In this document: in pieces, positions 15,807 through 27,673 of the stretch
Layout of the letters: every line of letters begins with the position of its first letter
Numbering within the stretch: the first letter of the stretch is position 1
Assembly (NCBI GenBank): GCA_018992685.1
Contig: JACVGT010000018.1
Location: forward strand, 286,578 to 350,577
Direction of reading: 5' to 3'
Length of the DNA: 64,000 nt
DNA from: Theionarchaea archaeon
GTDB lineage: Archaea; Methanobacteriota_B; Thermococci; Methanofastidiosales; SZ-28-30
Notes under the pieces: model-generated
Seen by the model: only the letters and a program-made list of their open reading frames with translations
Told to the model about the DNA's origin: nothing
Database searches by the model: none
Position numbers and translations under genes: made by a program

Positions 15807-17078
15807 TCAATGGCCCATTCTCTCTCTGATCTCATCGATATACAACTGCAGTTTTCTGTACTGGAGTGGTTCCAGCGGTTTCGGATGAGCCAGATCATTT
15901 CTGATCTCGTTCATTTCTATTAATCGTCCCTTTATCCATCCAATGCTGACAAAATATTGCTCAAATAAATCCCAATTGTTAAATCTCTGAGCCCGGTGTA
16001 AGATTATAGACAAGTAATTAGGAAAATCAGTGTAGTGCAGCAGCGAATAAACTGTTTTTTTCCTGATTCGAGCATCATGCTGACGTGCCTTTAACCGTTC
16101 TAGAGTATCAGGTGGAATGCGCTCCTCCCATTGTTCAGATCCTTTCTGCAGCACGTTTTCCAGAAATGCCCTGAATTCTTCCTCAAACTCGGCCAGAACA
16201 GTATAGGCCTGCGGGTTGCTGTGAATACCCTGCTGCACATTCTCAGCAAACTCCTCTAGAACCGGAGCCAAAACATATTCCCGTAAGAATCGCTTGTACG
16301 CCTTTCTATCCTCAACGGTAAAGTGAAGTGGATCTCTATAATACTTGATGATGCTTTTTTCCTTCATTTCTTCCAGGATCCCGGAAATATCTTCCAAGGA
16401 TATACCGCATTCCCTCAACTTGCGGAAAAAGATCCTCTCCTCCCTGGGTTCATGCAGCAGCAGTACCCGAAATATGTTCAACTCCTTGGAAATACCTCCC
16501 AGATACTTATCAAAGGACAGAATACGTTCTTCATTCATGTAATACTTCTCAAAATAAACATACACGTCAGGTGGAGTGACCACCGCCCAGTTCACGGGAC
16601 CTGAAGCTGTATATTGATGGACCTTCCTGGCAAATCCAGCGTCCATCAGGAGAGACTTTAAGACCACCACGAGGTCTTGGATCACAGGAAGCGGTGCCAC
16701 CAGTCTAACCTCTGGATGAACTGAAGGAAGATGCCTCCCCTGTGATAGCAGGTGTCCCAGGTATTTCAGGACCACATATGAGCCTTCCACGTTGAGCTTC
16801 TTGCAGTGCTCAAAAATGTCCCCAGCCCTCTCATGCAGCAGGTCAGCTGCGATCTGCTCCCCCTTTGCCGTACATCTCAGTACCTGTACTTTCCCCCACG
16901 TGTCCTTCTCCAGCAAATCATAGCCGTGCAGTATGCCTGTTGGCCCTGAAACATCTGCAGCGAGGACGCCTTTTCCAGATACATTCTGTTTAACAAACAC
17001 ATCTACCAGGCAGTCAAGCACCTTATCAGTATCAAACCCGTACCTGTCGAGCGTCTTCCGCAGCGTTCTGAGGTTCAC
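15807..17078 (-). CDS. Hypothetical protein with C-terminal Swt1-like HEPN domain
   Basis: EFEEEFRAFL...YTDFPNYLSII...NWDLFEQYF...EIRNDLAH, an RxxxxH HEPN motif. Confidence 0.7.
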   Translation of the reverse strand: MNLRTLRKTLDRYGFDTDKVLDCLVDVFVKQNVSGKGVLAADVSGPTGILHGYDLLEKDTWGKVQVLRCTAKGEQIAADLLHERAGDIFEHCKKLNVEGSYVVLKYLGHLLSQGRHLPSVHPEVRLVAPLPVIQDLVVVLKSLLMDAGFARKVHQYTASGPVNWAVVTPPDVYVYFEKYYMNEERILSFDKYLGGISKELNIFRVLLLHEPREERIFFRKLRECGISLEDISGILEEMKEKSIIKYYRDPLHFTVEDRKAYKRFLREYVLAPVLEEFAENVQQGIHSNPQAYTVLAEFEEEFRAFLENVLQKGSEQWEERIPPDTLERLKARQHDARIRKKTVYSLLHYTDFPNYLSIILHRAQRFNNWDLFEQYFVSIGWIKGRLIEMNEIRNDLAHPKPLEPLQYRKLQLYIDEIRERMGH

Positions 17079-17244
17079 GGACTGGAAACTGAATCACAGG
17101 TTATAAGGATTTCCCTGTACGCCTCCCGATTACACCTTTACTTGTAAACTGCCTGCAAAACCTCTGCCATGACAAATTTTTTTGTCAAAAAATCAGAGAA
17201 ATTAGTCAAAAAAGCTTTTATTCTTCCATTTCGTACTGGATACC

Positions 17245-17793
17245 ATGAAAGATAGAGAGGACATCATGCTGAATTCCCTGAATCACCGTGTGAGAAGAGA
17301 TATTCTTCGACTCATCAAAGGCAAAGGGAGTGCCACCTACACGCAAATCCTGGACAGAGTGGAATCACCCACAGGAAAGCTCAATTATCATCTCAAACAG
17401 CTGGCAGGGCTCATTGAAAAGACAGCATCTGACGAATATGAACTGACACCACTCGGGGAGAAAGCAGTGGAAATCCTGGAGGCCATCCAGACAGACGGGC
17501 TGGATGAATACTTCAGCGAGGTCAGTGAGGCACAGACCCAGAGCATATCTCCTCTGATGAAGGGATTGTTCAGGGGAGGTATTGCAGTAGCTGTCTTCTT
17601 ACTGGGATTCTGGACGTTCATGGGGTACCTCATGTATACCACAGGTGCACCGCTTGCAGTGTGGGTTATCCTGGTCATTCTGTATGCCCTGGGAGTTGCA
17701 CTGCTCTTGTTCTTGGTTACCGTGTACAAGACTGCTCCTGAATACATTGAACGGGTAGAATCCCGTATATTCAGGGGAAACCATGAGAAATAG
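17245..17793 (+). CDS. ArsR-like wHTH regulator with two C-terminal TM helices
   Basis: LNHRVRRDIL...TGKLNYHLKQL...YELTPLGEKA followed by two hydrophobic helices. Confidence 0.85.
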   Translation: MKDREDIMLNSLNHRVRRDILRLIKGKGSATYTQILDRVESPTGKLNYHLKQLAGLIEKTASDEYELTPLGEKAVEILEAIQTDGLDEYFSEVSEAQTQSISPLMKGLFRGGIAVAVFLLGFWTFMGYLMYTTGAPLAVWVILVILYALGVALLLFLVTVYKTAPEYIERVESRIFRGNHEK

Positions 17794-20202: not shown

Positions 20203-20979
20203 CTACAGTTCTTTCTGCTGACAGCATTCAACAAGTGTTTCAGCTGCCTGCATAGGATTGTCTGTCCTGAATTCTGACGAAAAGAGTCGGAACAAAAGCT
20301 GTACATACCTTTCCATTTCTGTGAGTTGCTCTTGCTCAGATATATCCTGATTGAGCTGAGGGATCTGAAAATCTGTCTTTAAAGAATGGGAGACAATCCA
20401 GGAGGCTGCAACAAAAATGAAGGCGTGCTGGATGAGGAACCTGCTCTGGGAAGACAGTCTCTGTATGGTGAAAACGATGCTTAGATATCGCCATATGGAT
20501 TGAGGATTGTCACTCTCCGTGGTGCGGTGCAGTATTTCATGGGTGAGGAGTTCCAGCACCTTCTGATCAGATTGGTGCCCAAGTGGAATGCTGAGTGGAG
20601 TGCTTCTGGGCCATGGACGAAAGAAGGACATCACAGGAAACACGTCCAGAATCCCATCATAGAAGATCCACAACTCTTCCATCAAGGAAATGATTCTCTT
20701 CTGGTTGGAATCCCACACTCGTTCAAGGTGTTGTTTGAATTCACGCAACTCTTCACTGAAGGCAGGCCACTCTGCAGAAAAAGAGTCCCGAAAAGAGGTT
20801 ACTTCCCGTCGGATGGGAAGGGAAATGCTGGAGAGCACAGCATCCAGGGATGTGCTGGAGACGAAAAGGCTTTCTACCTCTCTTGACCACAGATGGGATT
20901 TCTCTGATGAGAGCTGGTTTCTGGCATATCCCAGAAAATTGAGTGGTTCTGATACGTGAAAGATCAGTCGTAGTGTCAT
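20203..20979 (-). CDS. Hypothetical protein with HExxH motif (possible zinc peptidase)
   Basis: LLTHEILH. Start moved to ATG 20979 to avoid overlapping the methyltransferase; co-oriented with the RiPP operon. Confidence 0.55.
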   Translation of the reverse strand: MTLRLIFHVSEPLNFLGYARNQLSSEKSHLWSREVESLFVSSTSLDAVLSSISLPIRREVTSFRDSFSAEWPAFSEELREFKQHLERVWDSNQKRIISLMEELWIFYDGILDVFPVMSFFRPWPRSTPLSIPLGHQSDQKVLELLTHEILHRTTESDNPQSIWRYLSIVFTIQRLSSQSRFLIQHAFIFVAASWIVSHSLKTDFQIPQLNQDISEQEQLTEMERYVQLLFRLFSSEFRTDNPMQAAETLVECCQQKEL

Positions 20980-21034
20980 GGTATCATCACATTGGAGGTA
21001 CGAACTGAACCCTCGTCTTTGTTGTTGGGCCAGT

Positions 21035-21829
21035 CTATCGTTTTCGAGCAATGGCCTGTAGATGGTTTCCAACTGGACCGAACCCTTCTTCATTCAGGGT
21101 GATCTCGTAGGTCAGGATCTTTCTCCTGAATTCTGCATCGGTTTCAAGTCTCTCTCCCAAGTCTTCAAAATACGCTGCCCCGAGCGTGAGAAACACAGGT
21201 TTTCCCACCACTTTTACGAGATCCGCACCTGCTCTGTCAAATTCCTCCTTGAAAACTCGTGGAGTAAAGGTATACGTGCGCGTACCCCTCTTATCCACTG
21301 CAACTCCTTTGTCCAGAATGGTTTCTCCTTCACCAAAGCCATGGAGAACAGATTGTCTCATGAAAAACATATATCTATTGTCTACCCCAATTTCAATGTA
21401 GGAACCGGGCCTGGCCACTCTCACCAGCTCTTTTATTGCCTGGAAGTGATTTTCTGCACAGTAGGAGACAGGGTCACCCTCTGACAACACGAAGTCAAAG
21501 TGGTCTGAAGGGAAGTCCAGAGCCGTGATGTCCCCTTCTGTTACAAAGATGCGGTCAGTCAGTCCTTCCTTCTCGATTTTTTCAGAGGCTTCTGAAAGCA
21601 TTTCCGGAGAAACGTCCACCAGGTACACAGTATATCCTTCCCTGGCAAGCTGTATACTCCATTTGCCCGTTCCTCCTCCTGCATCAAGAATAACACCCTG
21701 TTCGGGAAGATAGTCCGTGATGTACTTCCAGGTAAGGGCATCATAGATCCCCCAGGATCCTCCAGAAAACATCTTGTCATATGACTCGGCCAGTCGACTG
21801 TAGGTTTCTCTTGCATTCTCTCCTTTCAT
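21035..21829 (-). CDS. Class I SAM-dependent methyltransferase
   Basis: ILDAGGGTG motif I, VDVSPEML, GDITALDF. Confidence 0.93.
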   Translation of the reverse strand: MKGENARETYSRLAESYDKMFSGGSWGIYDALTWKYITDYLPEQGVILDAGGGTGKWSIQLAREGYTVYLVDVSPEMLSEASEKIEKEGLTDRIFVTEGDITALDFPSDHFDFVLSEGDPVSYCAENHFQAIKELVRVARPGSYIEIGVDNRYMFFMRQSVLHGFGEGETILDKGVAVDKRGTRTYTFTPRVFKEEFDRAGADLVKVVGKPVFLTLGAAYFEDLGERLETDAEFRRKILTYEITLNEEGFGPVGNHLQAIARKR

Positions 21830-21833
21830 GCCA

Positions 21834-22088
21834 TCACTCCAAGAGCTTTAACTCCCTGAATCTGGACAACGTTTTCTCGACGTCCTCCTCCACAGTACTT
21901 CTGTCACTCTCCTCATCTGTGAGCATGTCCAGAAGGTCTCCTTCTGTCATCCCTTGCTGACAGGCTTCCATGATGGCAAGAGCTGTCTCATTAAATCTGT
22001 AGATTTTACCTGTTCCCATGTGAATGATGTATGTCTCATCAGGTTCCTGCCTGATCAACACCTGGGAACTAACCTTGGGCAGACTCAT
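21834..22088 (-). CDS. PqqD family RiPP recognition element (RRE)
   Basis: 84 aa; GKIYRFNETALAIMEAC...VEEDVEKTLSRFRELKLLE PqqD pattern; RBS GGAGG. Confidence 0.88.
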   Translation of the reverse strand: MSLPKVSSQVLIRQEPDETYIIHMGTGKIYRFNETALAIMEACQQGMTEGDLLDMLTDEESDRSTVEEDVEKTLSRFRELKLLE

Positions 22089-23379
22089 GGGCATTCCTCC
22101 TTTCATACATATACTCTAAATAGGGCGTCACAAGTTGCTTTATGTCAATACATGCCGGAGTAGAGAGATCCTCATTGACCAGCAGTGATTGATATCCGCA
22201 ACCGCCTCCGCAGACCAGTGCCAGTTCACATTCCCTGCAGGTATCCATAGAGAAGATTGTCCTGTCTCTCCATTTCTGCATGTTCCCATTGAATGACAAT
22301 TCCGGCGTATACACTCCAATACGATGTTCTTTCCAGCCCAGCATGGCTCGACAGGGGTACACATCTCCAAACGGGTCGAATACGTACCGGTTGGTTACTG
22401 CAGCGCAATTCCAGAAGGATGGCCAAAACCGGGGGCGCTCAGTGTACAGAGACGCCAGTTTCACATAAGGTGACGCCTCGAAAAACTGGAGGTCTTCCTG
22501 CAGTGCCACATCCAAGACCTGCCTGTAAATCGAAAACAGCTTCTCAGAATTCTCAATATCCGGAATCTGATCACACAAGTGGATCATGGCAAAGTGGACG
22601 GTGGGGTCATCAATCCACCCCCTCTCTCTGTAAAAGAGGGCAAGCTCGTGTATCTGTGATAGAACCTCTGGATCGCTGTTGGTTCGAAGTAGTAATGTGA
22701 TCCCCATATCCCTGGCTTTCTCTATGTTCCTGACAATAATGTCGAAAGTCCCCTTTCCACTTCTTGAAATGCGTCGCCCATCATGAACAGATCGAGGGCC
22801 ATCCAGCGTGATCTGAACAAATTCTATGTTCAATGACGAAATCTCGGGGAGAAAAGAATGTAACTCCACACCATTGGTGAAAAGTGTGAACTTATACCCC
22901 AGATCATCCCCTTTGCGTAATATGTATTTTACAATATCAGCATTCTTCATCATCAGGGGCTCTCCCCCTGTCAGGGTCAGAGGTTTCTCCCGTGAACATT
23001 GTGCATTCAGCTCTTCCATGGCGGTAAATGCCTTGTCCACTGTGGATTCATCTATCACCGTGTTCATCATCTGAGGGCTCTTTACCCATACTTCATAGCA
23101 GTAGGGGCACCGTAGATTACAGTCATATGTTACCGCAATCGTGCTGTCTGCACACAGGGCTGTCTTCTTCATCAAGAAACTGCAAAAAGCCTGGGCTTTC
23201 TCTGCCTCCTCTTCCGGACGTAAATTCGTAAAAAAGGGTTTCAACTCCTCAGTGACTGTACCTTCAAGTAATTGTTCTCCAGTTTTCTTATCCACAAAAA
23301 AGACTGCACCTGACAATCCATTGAGCAGTACGTACTTGTCCTTCACTGCAAATACCATGGTATACTGGCTCTTTCTGAT
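22069..23379 (-). CDS. Radical SAM/SPASM peptide maturase 1
   Basis: CNLRCPYC, GGEPL and SPASM C..VFDPFGDVYPC...CRECELALVCGGGC...C. Start is ATG 23358 or an in-frame ATC at 23379 after RBS GGAGGTGA. Confidence 0.93.
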   Translation of the reverse strand: MRKSQYTMVFAVKDKYVLLNGLSGAVFFVDKKTGEQLLEGTVTEELKPFFTNLRPEEEAEKAQAFCSFLMKKTALCADSTIAVTYDCNLRCPYCYEVWVKSPQMMNTVIDESTVDKAFTAMEELNAQCSREKPLTLTGGEPLMMKNADIVKYILRKGDDLGYKFTLFTNGVELHSFLPEISSLNIEFVQITLDGPRSVHDGRRISRSGKGTFDIIVRNIEKARDMGITLLLRTNSDPEVLSQIHELALFYRERGWIDDPTVHFAMIHLCDQIPDIENSEKLFSIYRQVLDVALQEDLQFFEASPYVKLASLYTERPRFWPSFWNCAAVTNRYVFDPFGDVYPCRAMLGWKEHRIGVYTPELSFNGNMQKWRDRTIFSMDTCRECELALVCGGGCGYQSLLVNEDLSTPACIDIKQLVTPYLEYMYERRNAHESAQG

Positions 23380-23576
23380 GGACTCACCTCCTTTCTGTTC
23401 TGGCAGCCCGTCTTAAAAAGGTTTTCTCAATCCCTCAATTCCTGTCGCGTCCTCCATGACTGCGACTGCCACAGAGACTGCTTCCACCACGAGTCCACGT
23501 TTAATAGTCCAAAAATCTCTTCAAAAAAAGTAAAAAGAATAGGAAATGTTTGCGCCTTTGTAGTGCTGTATCACGC

Positions 23577-23654
23577 CTAATCTGCGATGAAAGCGCAGCA
23601 CATGCACTGGTCGATCTCTACAGAAATCTCTTCAATCTTAGCGTTCGTGTACAT
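23577..23654 (-). CDS. RiPP precursor peptide A1, 25 aa: MYTNAKIEEISVEIDQCMCCAFIAD
   Basis: Manual translation; RBS AGGTGA, own BRE/TATA (GAAAAGTTTATAAG, 23687-23700) and downstream T-tract; paralog at 23961-24059. Confidence 0.88.
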   Translation of the reverse strand: MYTNAKIEEISVEIDQCMCCAFIAD

Positions 23655-23898
23655 GGATATCACCTGCTCTCCCTATTTTTTCTTTTCTTATAAACTTTTC
23701 GGATAAGAATAGATAGGCTAAAGGACGCATAAGACACTTTGAATTTTCCAAGAGATATATAATCCAGGCCCAGAATAGCCTAAAAGGCAGTACAATATCC
23801 TGATAGCGTAACTGTCTGGCTTTGCCCCACTTGAACATCACGTCCGTTGACTTTCATCAGCTTGCCCTGACAGTACCGATCATTGAACTTGGAACCAC

Positions 23899-23950
23899 AA
23901 AAAAGAAAGAAGGAAAGAGAAAGAAAGAGAAAGAAAAAAAGTGAAGAAAA
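23899..23950 (-). terminator. Oligo-T terminator of precursor A2
   Basis: Long T/C tract on the minus strand immediately after the TAA at 23961. Confidence 0.6.
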
Positions 23951-23960
23951 TCGGAAAAGC

Positions 23961-24059
23961 TTATGCAACGACTCCGATGTTGTCTATGGGGGCAGCAGCG
24001 CAGCACATGCACTGGTCGATCTCCATAGAAATCTCTTTGATTTCAGCTTTTGTGTACAT
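23961..24059 (-). CDS. RiPP precursor peptide A2, 32 aa: MYTKAEIKEISMEIDQCMCCAAAPIDNIGVVA
   Basis: Manual translation; identical AGGTGATATCCATGTACAC start context to A1, own BRE/TATA (GAAAGATTTATAAG, 24092-24105). Confidence 0.88.
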   Translation of the reverse strand: MYTKAEIKEISMEIDQCMCCAAAPIDNIGVVA

Positions 24060-24266
24060 GGATATCACCTACTCCCTTTTCCCCCTTGAGACTTATAAAT
24101 CTTTCGCTTAAGTTTAACGAAGGCGAGTGGTGTAGCAGTAGATGGTAATATGAATACGGATATTTCATTTGAGGTTATACCACGCTGATTCCCAGACACA
24201 TTCTCCTTTTCAATCTGGACAAGGCTTCTAGTGGCGTAAAAACTCTTGAAAGGGTTGCCAGAAAAG

Positions 24267-25508
24267 TTATTCTCCGATCTTCATGCCCTCTTTTATCAAG
24301 AGCATGGCTGCCAATACTGCTGCAACAAGGCACACTGACGTGATCTGGAAAGTCATCCTTATGTTGAATAACTCTGCAGCATACCCATAAATCAAAGGAG
24401 CCACGATGCTGGCCACCCCTCGCACTGATCCCAGTGTCCCGAAATATGTGCCGCGCAGTTCTGCTGGAACGATATCCACAATCAAAGCGCTCATGACCGG
24501 GCGAAACATCCCATCACCAACTCCAATCAAGGCCCACAGGACTATCATCCAAATCAGTGTGGGAGAATACGCCATGGCCGTGTTGAAGACAATGATGAGC
24601 GTCAATCCTAGACCGATGAAAGCTTTTCTTTTCCCCAGCTTGTCTGAAATCCATCCTCCAAAAGGCTGGACGACGGCAAAGGTAATCCAGGAAACGGCAA
24701 CGATGGGCCCCAGCAGTTCATTTCCCGCCCCAAACACCTGGGTCGCAAACAGGGGAACATACACAGGGTAGACACGCAGGGCAAACGTAAAGAAGAATGA
24801 GTAAACCATCAATCCTAGGGTGCTTTTCTGTAATGCCATGGTACGGGCGCTCTTTATGAATCTTTGAAATCTGGTTGCAGATGAGGCAGGCAGTGGTTTT
24901 TCCTCTTTTCGTTCAACAGTTTCCTTGAGGAAGAATGCAAGCACCAAAGAGGAGACAAAGAAGCACGCAGATGTAATGTAGAACAGCTCTCTGAACCCAA
25001 ATCCCCACGATATGATCGCGCCTCCTCCAAAGAGAGCTGCAGAATACACAATGCTCTCTACTGAGGAATAGAACCCAAACAGGGTTGCTCGCCCCTTTTC
25101 AGGAGCAACATCTCCCAGCATAGCACTGAGAACAGGCTGAGAGCTTTCAGAAACAACCGTACGAGCAGAATGAATGACTGCCAGTCCCAGAGCATTACGA
25201 ATGGCAAGATAAAACGGGGTCAGAAAACTCACCAGGAAAGACAGGCCTACAATGAGCTTTTTCCTTCCATATCGGTCTGACGTATGTCCCATGAAGGGGC
25301 GCAATACCAGCGAACCCAGGCTGGCCAGCGAGAAAATGATTCCCAAGTTTCGGAAGCTGATACCTTGCTCCACAAAATAGACTGCGAATATTGGATTCAA
25401 GAACCCTGCGCCAACCATGGAAACTCCGCCCGCCAGGAGAAGGGCCGGGATATTCGTTGATTGGGAGAGCAATTTCCAGACTTTCTTGATTTCCAGGAAT
25501 GCTGACAT
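24267..25508 (-). CDS. MFS transporter (putative exporter)
   Basis: About 12 TM; motif A GHTSDRYGRK and GWISDKLGKRK. Confidence 0.93.
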   Translation of the reverse strand: MSAFLEIKKVWKLLSQSTNIPALLLAGGVSMVGAGFLNPIFAVYFVEQGISFRNLGIIFSLASLGSLVLRPFMGHTSDRYGRKKLIVGLSFLVSFLTPFYLAIRNALGLAVIHSARTVVSESSQPVLSAMLGDVAPEKGRATLFGFYSSVESIVYSAALFGGGAIISWGFGFRELFYITSACFFVSSLVLAFFLKETVERKEEKPLPASSATRFQRFIKSARTMALQKSTLGLMVYSFFFTFALRVYPVYVPLFATQVFGAGNELLGPIVAVSWITFAVVQPFGGWISDKLGKRKAFIGLGLTLIIVFNTAMAYSPTLIWMIVLWALIGVGDGMFRPVMSALIVDIVPAELRGTYFGTLGSVRGVASIVAPLIYGYAAELFNIRMTFQITSVCLVAAVLAAMLLIKEGMKIGE

Positions 25509-25797: not shown

Positions 25798-26835
25798 TTA
25801 CCATGATGAAAGAGGATCCGGGTCACCAGTTCTGCCTGATGCTGCATATGCATCTGCTCTGCATCCTCCGGTGCACAGTGAAAGATAGCCACAGTCACAG
25901 CATTGCTGGGGGACATGTGAGAATGTCCTGCATTTCCAGATGAAATCTGATGTGCTCCAAATGGTTCTCAGTGACACTTTTTTTAGGTCACCTTCTTCTT
26001 TGCCCATGGCCCCACATGTACGCACCGTTCCCTGGGGGGAGACTGCACACCATGTTATCCCTCCCTGGCAGCCTACTACATCAAATTTCTGGTAGATTTC
26101 GAGCATGGAAGGAATCCCCTCATCTCCAAGACAACACAGGGGGAAAGGAGACTGTATGGACGCTCTTTTCACATCGCAGTGAAGGAGGAAGTCCATCAAC
26201 TCAGAAATATTCTGGCTGTTAAACTGCAGTGTTCGGTCAGCACATCTGCCCGTGAGAACCAGGCGAGTCATGCTGAGACTTGCTTTCAGTGATTGTGCGA
26301 CTTCATCAACATGAGACAACTCCTTGAAATTCAGGCGGGTTAGTGCCAGGTTAATATTGGTGGGAACTCTGTGCTCTGCCAGCTCCTGGAGTCCCTTCAC
26401 AGCTTTCCGGTAGGCTCCTGGAACACCTGCGAGAACATCATGTGTTTTCTCAGTCCCGTGGAGCGAAACCTGCACTGAGGTATTCAGATGATGCAGCATC
26501 TGTGCTTTCTCTTCGGTCAGAAGGGTCCCATTGGTGACTACACACGTCTTCATCTTGCAGGTTCGTGCATATTCTATGAGCTCGAATATATCTTTCCGCA
26601 ACAGGGGCTCTCCCCCGGTGAAAAAAAGCATCTTGACATCAGCTTCTCTCAGGCGGTCCAGAATTACCGTCATGTTAGTATCATGGTGGCTCTTGTGGTT
26701 CTTATCCCACACATTATAGCAGAACTGACACAAATTATTGCATCGGGACGTCACTTCCAGTTCCACCGTTATGGGGGAGGAAAGAGCCCTACCCAGCTCA
26801 TGAGACCCCTTTCTGAACTCATCGGGAGACTTCAT
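25798..26835 (-). CDS. Radical SAM/SPASM protein 2 (PqqE/MftC-like)
   Basis: CNNLCQFC, TGGEPLL, CQGG...SPQGTVRTC...CCDCGYLSLCTGGC. Start placed at ATG 26835 after GGAGG (the ORF-track 27150 extension overlaps the upstream gene). Confidence 0.9.
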   Translation of the reverse strand: MKSPDEFRKGSHELGRALSSPITVELEVTSRCNNLCQFCYNVWDKNHKSHHDTNMTVILDRLREADVKMLFFTGGEPLLRKDIFELIEYARTCKMKTCVVTNGTLLTEEKAQMLHHLNTSVQVSLHGTEKTHDVLAGVPGAYRKAVKGLQELAEHRVPTNINLALTRLNFKELSHVDEVAQSLKASLSMTRLVLTGRCADRTLQFNSQNISELMDFLLHCDVKRASIQSPFPLCCLGDEGIPSMLEIYQKFDVVGCQGGITWCAVSPQGTVRTCGAMGKEEGDLKKVSLRTIWSTSDFIWKCRTFSHVPQQCCDCGYLSLCTGGCRADAYAASGRTGDPDPLSSW

Positions 26836-27673
26836 GCAGAACCTCCTGATACTGTGATGCGTCAGCACGTGCTCTGTCAGCATTTGTATACCGATGCTTG
26901 AACAGTACGCGGTTGTTTCGAATGAAATATAAGGACATGTAACCAGAGAGGGGCTGCTCTTTGATACATGGCGTGCCGCCGATTTCTGAGATATCCGGGG
27001 AGGTTTTTTGAGATTTCGAGGATTCGTGTTCATCAGTGGGCACCAGGACAAATACGTCACCTGCATCAGGAATGTAATCAAGAAGATGACACAGATCACG
27101 TTGTGCCCGCACGTGGGTGAGATTTTCAATCTGAGAGCTGTGGCTTTCAAATGTGTGAGGAAGTGTTGTCTTCAAAGCAGAAAACATACTTGTGACGTAA
27201 TGCAGATGGACTGCTTCGGTCCTGTACTTGTGCAGGCTGAAAGGAATCAAGAACGTCGGTACCTGGATGGAATTCTCTTGAGAAAAGACTTCGAGGGCAT
27301 GTATCTTGGCTTGCACAGCCTCAACCCTCCCATGGGAAATCCACCCGTCAGGAGAAAACATGCACCCTGTAGAGAATACGTTCTTGGGCAGCTCTTCCCC
27401 CGTTACTGCACTGGATAGGAGTAAGAATAGAGGGACTGAGGTACTCCATCCATCTACAGCGTCGCTATCCACTGAGACCAAGAAATCGTAATCATTACAG
27501 TCAAAAACCTTCCCAATCAATTGAGAAACTGCGCGCAGTTGGAATTGCCATTCCGGATAGAAAATGGTGGACGCATCCAGGAAGATCTTCCCATCACCTG
27601 TCATTCTCTGCACAGAGAGAGTCCGAGGAATTCCTCTATTCTCAGCTAGTACAAAAATGACTGTAGAGGTCAT
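26819..27673 (-). CDS. Lon-protease (S16)-like Ser-Lys catalytic domain protein without AAA+ module
   Basis: VDGWSTS...FSTGCMFSPDGWISH...VQAKIHA resembles Lon_C DGPSA...TG...G.V..K; ATGA overlap with the upstream gene. Confidence 0.6.
   Translation of the reverse strand: MTSTVIFVLAENRGIPRTLSVQRMTGDGKIFLDASTIFYPEWQFQLRAVSQLIGKVFDCNDYDFLVSVDSDAVDGWSTSVPLFLLLSSAVTGEELPKNVFSTGCMFSPDGWISHGRVEAVQAKIHALEVFSQENSIQVPTFLIPFSLHKYRTEAVHLHYVTSMFSALKTTLPHTFESHSSQIENLTHVRAQRDLCHLLDYIPDAGDVFVLVPTDEHESSKSQKTSPDISEIGGTPCIKEQPLSGYMSLYFIRNNRVLFKHRYTNADRARADASQYQEVLHEVSR

Follow-up and report, generated by a model that had tools for sequence, protein, structure and literature searches.

A short-peptide gene family beside a CteB-like radical SAM/SPASM enzyme in Theionarchaea: probable precursors of a thioether-type RiPP

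Background

Archaeal gene clusters that encode radical S-adenosylmethionine (SAM) enzymes for peptides synthesised by ribosomes and then modified post-translationally (RiPPs) have been predicted in large numbers, with essentially no characterised products (PMC12144867, available text). The closest described systems are CteB/CteA, the SCIFF ranthipeptide pair of Clostridium thermocellum (Protein Data Bank (PDB) entries 5WGG and 5WHY), PapB/PapA, responsible for the Cys-X3-Asp beta-thioethers of freyrasin, and CrpC from the archaeon Methanococcus voltae (TIGR04463). According to the accessible parts of the sources, PapB joins a Cys to an Asp or Glu across 0-6 residues (PMC10739248; also PMC10177961 for the Cys-Asp/Glu linkage), and CrpC is a SPASM radical SAM enzyme with a predicted RiPP recognition element (RRE) that installs ranthionines (PMC13692751). 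CrpA and CrpB have a common N-terminal leader-like part and then diverge; CrpA is a large repeat protein, and the same study screened only proteins of at least 100 amino acids (aa) (PMC13692751, available text). The present analysis concerns two short genes, A1 and A2, in a 64,000-nucleotide stretch (the window) of contig JACVGT010000018.1 from a Theionarchaea archaeon. As judged from their sequences and surroundings, they are probably the separately transcribed precursors of a new, Theionarchaea-restricted RiPP family of thioether type (ranthipeptide- or sactipeptide-like).

The window system resembles CteB/CteA in that a short Cys-containing peptide is encoded beside the enzyme, and the two enzymes have in common an N-terminal RRE-like domain, the CX3CX2C motif and the spacing of seven SPASM cysteines. 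They differ in sequence (identity of about 18-20%; a score of 94.3 against a cut-off of 425 with the SCIFF maturase model TIGR03974) and in their substrates: the window precursors have 25-35 aa, with two or three Cys right after a putative 16-aa leader, whereas SCIFF peptides have about 45 aa and six Cys. The SCIFF precursor model does not match A1 or A2. Unlike CteB/CteA, the window cluster is archaeal and adds a stand-alone PqqD, a methyltransferase, an HExxH protein and a major facilitator superfamily (MFS) transporter.

PapB is likewise a homologous radical SAM/SPASM enzyme (NF047865, E 2.7e-30, 105.7 against a cut-off of 340); with both TIGR03974 and NF047865 below their cut-offs, the window enzyme falls outside the curated ranthipeptide-maturase families. 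As in the PapB system, an acidic residue always stands four positions from each of two invariant cysteines, but in the window family it precedes the Cys (D/E-X3-C), and a single motif pair takes the place of six repeats. In the available text of PMC10739248, no statement on PapB accepting the reverse order was found. With respect to CrpC, TIGR04463 is the second-best NCBIfam match of the window enzyme, yet it scores 124.4 against a cut-off of 525, and the window substrates are far shorter than the large CrpA, at 25-35 aa.

By analogy, the system would operate in the manner of the pathways for ranthipeptides and sactipeptides (CteB, PapB) and of the archaeal CrpC system, as a member of none of their curated families. 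No description of the peptide family or of Theionarchaea RiPPs was found in the literature searched; the supplements of PMC13692751, PMC10288494 and PMC12144867, outside that search, might list the radical SAM orthogroup. Within this scope, the precursor family, its strict confinement to Theionarchaea-like archaea, the tandem precursors with a promoter for each and the HExxH protein family appear to be undescribed.

The precursor genes and their family

A1 precursor gene: 23577..23654, minus strand; 25 aa (MYTNAKIEEISVEIDQCMCCAFIAD); stop codon TAG at 23577-23579, ATG preceded by GGTGA
A2 precursor gene: 23961..24059, minus strand; 32 aa (MYTKAEIKEISMEIDQCMCCAAAPIDNIGVVA); stop codon TAA at 23961-23963, ATG preceded by GGTGA

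A first-pass annotation, made from the letters alone, had placed two unannotated paralogous precursor genes here. The listing of open reading frames (ORFs) confirms two paralogous minus-strand ORFs, as does the 26-nt GAGATCGACCAGTGCATGTGCTGCGC, which encodes E-I-D-Q-C-M-C-C-A and is identical in A1 and A2. It occurs exactly twice in the window (0 of 100 shuffled controls had at least two matches), with no further copy elsewhere in the 3.03-Mb, 45-contig genome. Alternative GTG starts in the ORF listing extend the genes to 23577..23663 (28 aa) and 23961..24068 (35 aa); in each case the in-frame GTG lies three codons 5' of the ATG and is part of the GGTGA box. The two loci are alignable from about 15 nt 5' of TTTATAAG to the Ala codon after CMCC, and 3' of that codon they have only T-rich sequence in common. 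"Unannotated" also fits: with either start, both peptides are absent from a collection of 15 billion proteins that does include the radical SAM enzyme of the same contig. NCBIfam holds no family for A1 or A2 at E <= 0.1.

In all, 14 complete copies at seven loci and 11 further protein-library sequences were found. Two other genomes of the same genus (G001 and G002; the window genome is G000) carry them at the orthologous radical SAM locus: in G001, A1' MYIRSEIEEISMEIDQCMCCAVIVD and A2' MYIKSEIEEISMEIDQCMCCAAAPIDNIGVVA with unchanged gene order, and in G002 the copy MYAKSEIEEIHVEIDQCMCCATMAPIIDINNPLSL. A degenerate DNA pattern for IDQCMCC found 21 stretches in the genome_contigs collection; four are real, from records titled Theionarchaea or "uncultured Thermococci archaeon", and 17 are chance matches lacking the leader (about 26 chance matches would be expected by our own arithmetic). 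In metagenome_contigs, three of 38 stretches are real (loci L055, L057 and L068), and the other 35 are again chance matches lacking the leader. A profile built from seven peptides gave 12 matches at E <= 0.001 among 1.84 billion proteins, all with the same leader and varied tails, including an EVEQCMC subfamily with only two Cys.

Alignment of 23 peptides (25-35 aa, with two or three Cys) reveals five invariant residues: M1, Y2, C17, M18 and C19. The spacing from MY to CMC is constant at 14 residues, E9 and Q16 are near-invariant, and all 23 peptides have D or E at positions 13 and 15, so placed that each acidic position lies four residues before a Cys (E13...C17 and D15...C19). QCMCCA, described in the first-pass annotation as invariant, is so within the genus; across the family only C-M-C is, the third Cys and the Ala being genus-level features (the third Cys is missing in 7/23 peptides). 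The tails comprise 4-14 residues, and they cannot be aligned between paralogs, whereas they are conserved between orthologs. The statement that the A1 and A2 tails diverge completely does not hold: in both, an Asp comes after a run of hydrophobic residues, and the sister species G001 has the same A2 tail. A search of the 23 peptides against Pfam gave nothing meaningful (a single chance match, E 0.085, in one peptide). Conserved residues 1-19 followed by a hypervariable tail, with 2-5 tandem paralogs per locus that differ in their tails, is the textbook arrangement in which diversified cores follow a conserved leader.

The peptides are present in three of 34 genomes of the order and three of 133 of the phylum, all three belonging to the genus with orthologs of the radical SAM enzyme. 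Such orthologs (>50% identity) occur in three of 41 genomes, the same three; these genomes are kin, and the co-occurrence is not an independent statistic.

Coding status and selection

The reading frame and the MY-x14-CMC arrangement are kept in all 14 complete copies at the seven loci, with start and CMC intact and no stop codon or frameshift in the conserved segment. Nei-Gojobori (NG86) counts on the seven complete genus copies give dN/dS values of 0.02-0.2 over codons 1-21 wherever dS is computable. Between the G000 and G002 copies, synonymous sites are saturated (proportion of synonymous differences, pS, 0.74-0.98), while the nonsynonymous proportion (pN) is 0.06-0.11. In the pair W_A1 and G002_C13b, codons 7-21 hold 8.0 synonymous differences over 7.7 sites and none over 37.3 nonsynonymous sites. 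The A2 tail (11 codons) differs between G000 and G001 by four synonymous and no nonsynonymous changes, leaving its residues identical. These counts bear out the selection on the peptides suggested in the first-pass annotation, and A1 and A2 are very likely translated genes under purifying selection.

The contrary explanation, in which there is no gene but only a promoter or non-coding RNA element that was duplicated and has one frame open by chance, draws on the shortness of the ORFs and on the fact that no gene caller has recorded them. It is almost certainly wrong: changes are concentrated at third codon positions (as in the zero against eight of codons 7-21), frame, start and CMC persist in 14/14 copies, nine of the 12 library matches had previously been called by others as proteins starting at MY, and Rfam yields no match at E <= 1 within 23300-24400.

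In four other sediment metagenome runs, contigs match the leader plus CMCC only and then continue with unlike sequence, which implies further tail variants in nature. Their variants within the A2 leader fall either at synonymous third positions (24039, 24033 and 24027) or in codons 8 and 12 (24037, 24036 and 24026), which are also variable in the alignment. Concerted evolution of the leaders within a genome was considered as well: over 63 nt, A1 is nearer to its paralog (55 and 57 identical positions) than to its ortholog (50), but A2 is not, and the signal is too weak to sustain the idea.

Transcription signals

A1 promoter and ribosome-binding site: 23660..23702, minus strand; BRE/TATA CCGAAAAGTTTATAAG (23702-23687) and GGTGA (23664-23660), 5 nt before the ATG
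A1 oligo-T tract, putative archaeal terminator: 23523..23536, minus strand; T5 and T7
A2 promoter and ribosome-binding site: 24065..24106, minus strand; CGAAAGATTTATAAG (24106-24092) and GGTGA (24069-24065)
A2 T-rich/polypyrimidine 3' region, putative terminator: 23895..23958, minus strand; includes a T7 run at 23940-23934

A1 and A2 have in common the motif CGAAArrTTTATAAG, a GGTGA that stands 5 nt from the ATG on its 5' side, and T5-T7 runs 3' of the stop codon. By the archaeal consensus, we take these to be a transcription factor B recognition element (BRE) with TATA box, a Shine-Dalgarno sequence and an archaeal oligo-T terminator, respectively. All three were surveyed in the 14 complete copies, seven of which are also in the alignment, and recur in every one: CGAAAnnTTTA(T/A)A(A/T)(A/G) starts about 45 nt (its TATA part about 40 nt) 5' of the ATG, GGTGA stands 4-5 nt before it, and at least one T5-T11 run lies within about 60 nt 3' of the stop codon. 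No similarity was found in the DNA surrounding these copies. The first-pass picture of a promoter, start context and terminator for each gene in unduplicated flanking DNA therefore extends to the whole set. By these motifs, A1 and A2 would be separate transcription units, each individually promoted and presumably terminated. The combined promoter and Shine-Dalgarno motif matches the genome seven times, and only A1 and A2 among the matches belong to this peptide family. A2 is followed at 23889-23958 by roughly 70 nt of polypyrimidine sequence, CTTT/CTCTTT-like on the minus strand, which was skipped as a repeat when reads were mapped.

The same signals bear on the possibility that the ORFs remain unmodified, either as Cys/Met-sensing attenuator leader peptides of a SAM-dependent operon or as stand-alone small proteins. 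Their position directly upstream of the operon and the Cys and Met codons in a row would suit an attenuator. This explanation is nevertheless very improbable, given that each ORF has its own promoter and oligo-T tract, up to five copies stand in tandem, and at L068 the peptide genes lie downstream of the radical SAM gene. Moreover, purifying selection acts on the amino acids of the acidic leader and of the orthologous tails, for which an attenuator has no need, and leader-peptide attenuation is not known as an established mechanism in archaea.

The radical SAM/SPASM maturase and its linkage to the peptides

Radical SAM/SPASM maturase: 22069..23358, minus strand; 429 aa with an N-terminal RRE-like domain; Pfam PF04055, SPASM TIGR04085

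On the minus strand the gene order is MFS transporter, A2, A1, radical SAM/SPASM enzyme, PqqD, SAM methyltransferase, 259-aa protein and UvrC. G001 is collinear with the window from a gene for a HEPN-like protein (15807) to a penicillin amidase gene (31586). In G002 (contig C79), the series of peptide, radical SAM enzyme, PqqD and methyltransferase is kept, with a different gene upstream. L057 shows the peptide and radical SAM genes only, and at L068 the radical SAM gene is followed downstream by five tandem peptide copies; L055 has an MFS gene followed by a peptide gene, as does G001. An ortholog of the radical SAM enzyme (53-78% identity) thus adjoins the peptide genes at all five loci with visible neighbours (window, G001, C79, L057 and L068), and a PqqD gene is present at three of them. 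This context favours the reading of A1 and A2 as precursors put forward in the first-pass annotation. Since the accessory genes differ among the loci, the invariant core consists of the peptide or peptides and this radical SAM orthogroup. At L068 (6186-9725) the array of five precursor genes ends at a 491-aa transposase-like ORF, and inside it lies a piece similar to the terminal part of a further ORF on that contig, which suggests rearrangement by a mobile element.

The enzyme is a clear SPASM protein (TIGR04085, 52.9 bits against a cut-off of 27). The CX3CX2C motif (C80/C84/C87) and the seven SPASM cysteines (C318/C336/C374/C377/C383/C387/C403) are invariant in 79 sequences, and the SPASM spacings of 18/38/3/6/4 are those of CteB C344/C362/C400/C403/C409/C413. 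In the available text of PMC10177961, auxiliary cluster 1 (AC1) of CteB has three Cys ligands and auxiliary cluster 2 (AC2) four, and a substrate chalcogen is bound to the auxiliary-cluster iron in PapB and Tte1186. Judged by its cysteines, the window enzyme would likewise have a three-Cys AC1 with an open site for a substrate thiolate and a four-Cys AC2.

CteB is also its top solved relative in three kinds of search: phmmer (2.7e-19), a profile (1.6e-40, covering CteB residues 14-431) and, for the fold, Foldseek of the model (pLDDT 93, 1e-19 over the whole length). In the model, residues 1-66 are folded into three strands and then helices, an RRE-like arrangement that aligns to the N-terminal domain of CteB. 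The best NCBIfam matches are mostly maturases of Cys-rich peptides (CefB, TIGR04463, Clo7bot, PapB and SCIFF), whereas the sactipeptide maturases StsB (model NF045574) and SkfB give only 4.7e-15 and 2.1e-5, respectively. The peptides do not follow the Cys-every-fifth pattern of the CefB system, being C-M-C(-C) with no five-residue Cys period. The orthogroup comprises 29 cluster representatives at 53-84% identity, the next proteins standing at 37%, and its names are exclusively Theionarchaea, Candidatus Methanofastidiosia or "uncharacterized".

About 27 nt 5' of the annotated ATG (23358 in the window), five orthologs have a strong GGAGGTGA box (window 23359-23400, minus strand). The triplet 4-5 nt after the box is ATC, ATC, ATC, ATA or ACG, and the seven codons that follow it (IRKSQYT-like) are conserved, with mostly third-position changes; no canonical in-frame start is found there in the window and G001. 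The maturase may begin at a near-cognate codon eight codons 5' of the annotated ATG.

Accessory proteins

Stand-alone PqqD-family RRE: 21834..22088, minus strand; 84 aa; PF05402, 43.7 bits against a cut-off of 23.4; overlaps the 3' end of the radical SAM gene
Class I SAM-dependent methyltransferase: 21035..21829, minus strand; 264 aa; Pfam Methyltransf_25/11
HExxH protein of a new family, putative zincin-type leader peptidase: 20203..20982, minus strand; 259 aa; no Pfam or NCBIfam family
MFS transporter, putative exporter: 24267..25508, minus strand; 413 aa; PF07690, 3.9e-48

The nearest solved structure of the PqqD protein is the lasso RRE TbiB1 (5V1U), a likeness to the lasso B1/B2 systems. 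The protein has a weak match, too, to the model of the daptide HExxH protease, in its PqqD-like N-terminal part (13.5 against 300), and an HExxH protein is encoded two genes from it, which recalls the PqqD-HExxH fusion of daptides. The differences are equally plain: the scores lie far below the cut-offs (lasso NF033530, 26.9 against 70), the HExxH protein looks soluble and has no Pfam or NCBIfam family, and among 14 neighbouring ORFs there is neither a lasso cyclase (asparagine-synthetase-like) nor a B2 transglutaminase-type protease. The methyltransferase, with generic matches only in NCBIfam and the PDB, is kept in the G001 and G002 clusters.

The 259-aa protein has 15 homologs, all named "hypothetical" in Theionarchaea or Methanofastidiosia records. 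HExxH is found in 15/15 sequences, and H147, E148, H151, H185 and E247 are invariant, H185 and E247 being candidate third metal ligands. The AlphaFold2 (AF2) model (pLDDT 91) finds its best structural matches in the catalytic domains of M1 aminopeptidase, thermolysin, LasB and M48 (Z 8.8-5.6; 8.8-5.9 for the M1 and thermolysin-type domains). Pfam at E <= 10 gave a chance match only, and its matches in the ESM Atlas are all unnamed clusters, Peptidase_M78 (0.87) being no more than a weak hint. On the strength of the motif and the model, the protein is probably a zincin-type leader peptidase.

PqqD, a radical SAM/SPASM enzyme and a very short peptide together also call to mind the logic of pyrroloquinoline quinone (PQQ) and mycofactocin, in which A1 and A2 would be precursors of a small cofactor or metal-binding molecule instead of a bioactive peptide for export, or of a Cys-Met-Cys metallophore, with a functional N-terminal part and CMC and a dispensable tail. 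The conserved part does span residues 1-19, including Tyr2 and the near-invariant Glu9, while the tail varies, and C-M-C could offer soft sulfur ligands. Still, the PqqD protein scores below the PQQ cut-off (TIGR03859, 20.6 against 46), neither the PqqE nor the MftC model appears in the best 25 of the 76 NCBIfam matches of the radical SAM enzyme, and no other pathway family of PQQ or mycofactocin is encoded among the neighbours. The 2-5 tandem paralogs per locus with different tails, the purifying selection on the A2 tail, which indicates that tails matter, the exporter gene conserved beside the peptide genes, and the presence of the system in one genus among the 133 genomes of the phylum, unlike a core cofactor, all speak against it as well, and the explanation is considered quite unlikely.

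Proposed pathway

In the proposed thioether pathway, residues 1-16 (MYxKxEIxEISxEIDQ) would serve as a short acidic leader, bound by an RRE-type domain, either the one at the N terminus of the radical SAM enzyme or the stand-alone PqqD, or by both. A Cys thiolate of C17-M18-C19 would then be coordinated at the open iron of AC1 in the CteB-like enzyme, and abstraction of a hydrogen atom would be followed by closure of one to three thioether bridges (sactionine or ranthionine). Two acceptor topologies can be envisaged: a Cys could be joined to a residue of the variable tail, or to the acidic residue (13 or 15) four positions upstream, as a reverse-order ranthionine. Methylation might be the work of the methyltransferase, the leader would be cut off by the HExxH protein, perhaps with PqqD as a guide, and the MFS transporter would export the product. 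Owing to the hypervariable tails, each paralog would give a different product. As the radical SAM enzyme has an RRE-like domain of its own and no PqqD is encoded close by at L057 and L068, the partner of the stand-alone PqqD may instead be the HExxH protein or the methyltransferase. Such a role would have parallels in the lasso B1/B2 pair, in which an RRE presents the leader to the protease, and in the PqqD-HExxH protease fusion of daptides. The predicted complex of the radical SAM enzyme, PqqD and A2, computed with alignments, had a score that was not specific when compared with a control in which the radical SAM enzyme was replaced, and it is used neither for nor against binding.

Several observations weigh against the thioether pathway. 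No acceptor residue is conserved across the tails, although formation of the bridge at an alpha-carbon (sactionine) would explain such an absence. The tail Asp, present in 7/7 genus copies, was considered as an acceptor and rejected, as it fails in L057 (...APIIFIGSAGF), in L068 and in the P0006 and P0008 tails. The third Cys is absent from part of the family (see above), and a simple thioether model does not account for the invariance of Met18 (and Tyr2). On the enzyme side, the radical SAM protein falls below every curated NCBIfam family cut-off (the best, CefB NF038107, 145.6 against 600), and the accessible text of PMC10288494 holds that radical SAM chemistry cannot be predicted without very high identity to a characterised enzyme. 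As to the accessory proteins, the zincin match of the 259-aa protein is middling (Z 8.8 lies within the stated grey zone of the tool), Foldseek of this protein against the PDB gave nothing at E <= 0.001, and no PqqD, methyltransferase or HExxH gene is found near the radical SAM gene at L057 and L068, where these parts may be optional or encoded elsewhere.

Some of these points would equally suit the same enzyme-substrate pair with a chemistry other than thioether formation, such as a C-C or ether cross-link, epimerisation or the conversion of Cys to formylglycine as in the anaerobic sulfatase-maturating enzymes (anSME), in which case CMC would act only as a handle for the auxiliary cluster. 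The missed cut-offs, the warning in PMC10288494 and the invariance of Tyr2 and Met18 are in its favour, as are the significant matches of the radical SAM enzyme to the cyclophane formers DynA, YhhB and FxsB and to anSME. On the other hand, among solved proteins CteB stands out clearly as the best match at each of the three levels (sequence, profile, fold), the seven-Cys pattern and three-Cys AC1 are as in the thioether enzymes CteB, PapB and Tte1186, and two Cys are among the only invariant residues of the core. Such a chemistry is regarded as unlikely, if worth keeping in mind, and the thioether pathway is preferred.

A more speculative and doubtful form of the thioether pathway takes the block [D/E]13-x-[D/E]15-x-C17-M18-C19 itself as the warhead. 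Two interlocked reverse Cys-to-Asp/Glu thioether rings might then enclose the Met, with the tails setting target specificity. The product would represent a new RiPP class confined to Theionarchaea, and would be the first archaeal radical-SAM peptide product with a dedicated HExxH leader peptidase family. The many further tail variants in sediment metagenomes suggest, by analogy, a library diversification of the prochlorosin type.

The locus constitutes a compact test case, with substrates of 25-35 aa, a 16-aa putative leader, a three-residue invariant motif and one CteB-like enzyme, for which nature supplies variants with two or three Cys and many tails. The HExxH family is possibly a new type of leader peptidase. 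Standard gene calling misses such genes. Nothing established is overturned, as the logic is that of the known ranthipeptide and sactipeptide pathways.

Other observations around the locus and in the genome

A DUF7347/HTH_20 winged-helix regulator and a 423-aa protein are encoded divergently at 15807-17793, a pair conserved in G001; the 423-aa protein matches Swt1-like HEPN weakly, below the cut-off. Upstream of the MFS gene (25798-28737, minus strand), two more radical SAM/SPASM genes (450 and 355 aa) flank a 293-aa ORF of no known family. In NCBIfam they match AhbD, NirJ and mycofactocin-type models best, with scores that in no case come near the cut-off; the arrangement is collinear in G001, and no precursor was identified there. 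Further upstream on the same strand, 29247-31586 encodes a 779-aa protein of the penicillin-amidase family (PF01804, 2.9e-227). The location of this N-terminal nucleophile (Ntn) hydrolase near peptide-modification genes might be relevant or coincidental.

Radical SAM/SPASM proteins are expanded in the genus, with 35, 44 and 37 matches in G000, G001 and G002, respectively, against 0-8 in the other 38 genomes searched, and many of these paralogs are encoded in tandem pairs or triplets. Beside other radical SAM/SPASM paralogs of G000, outside the window, lies a second small-ORF family of three paralogs (29-35 aa) ending in WKExK(M/L)xCL (C19 near 17841, minus strand; C3 near 57020, plus strand; C7 near 100449, minus strand), which are candidate precursors of another peptide family.

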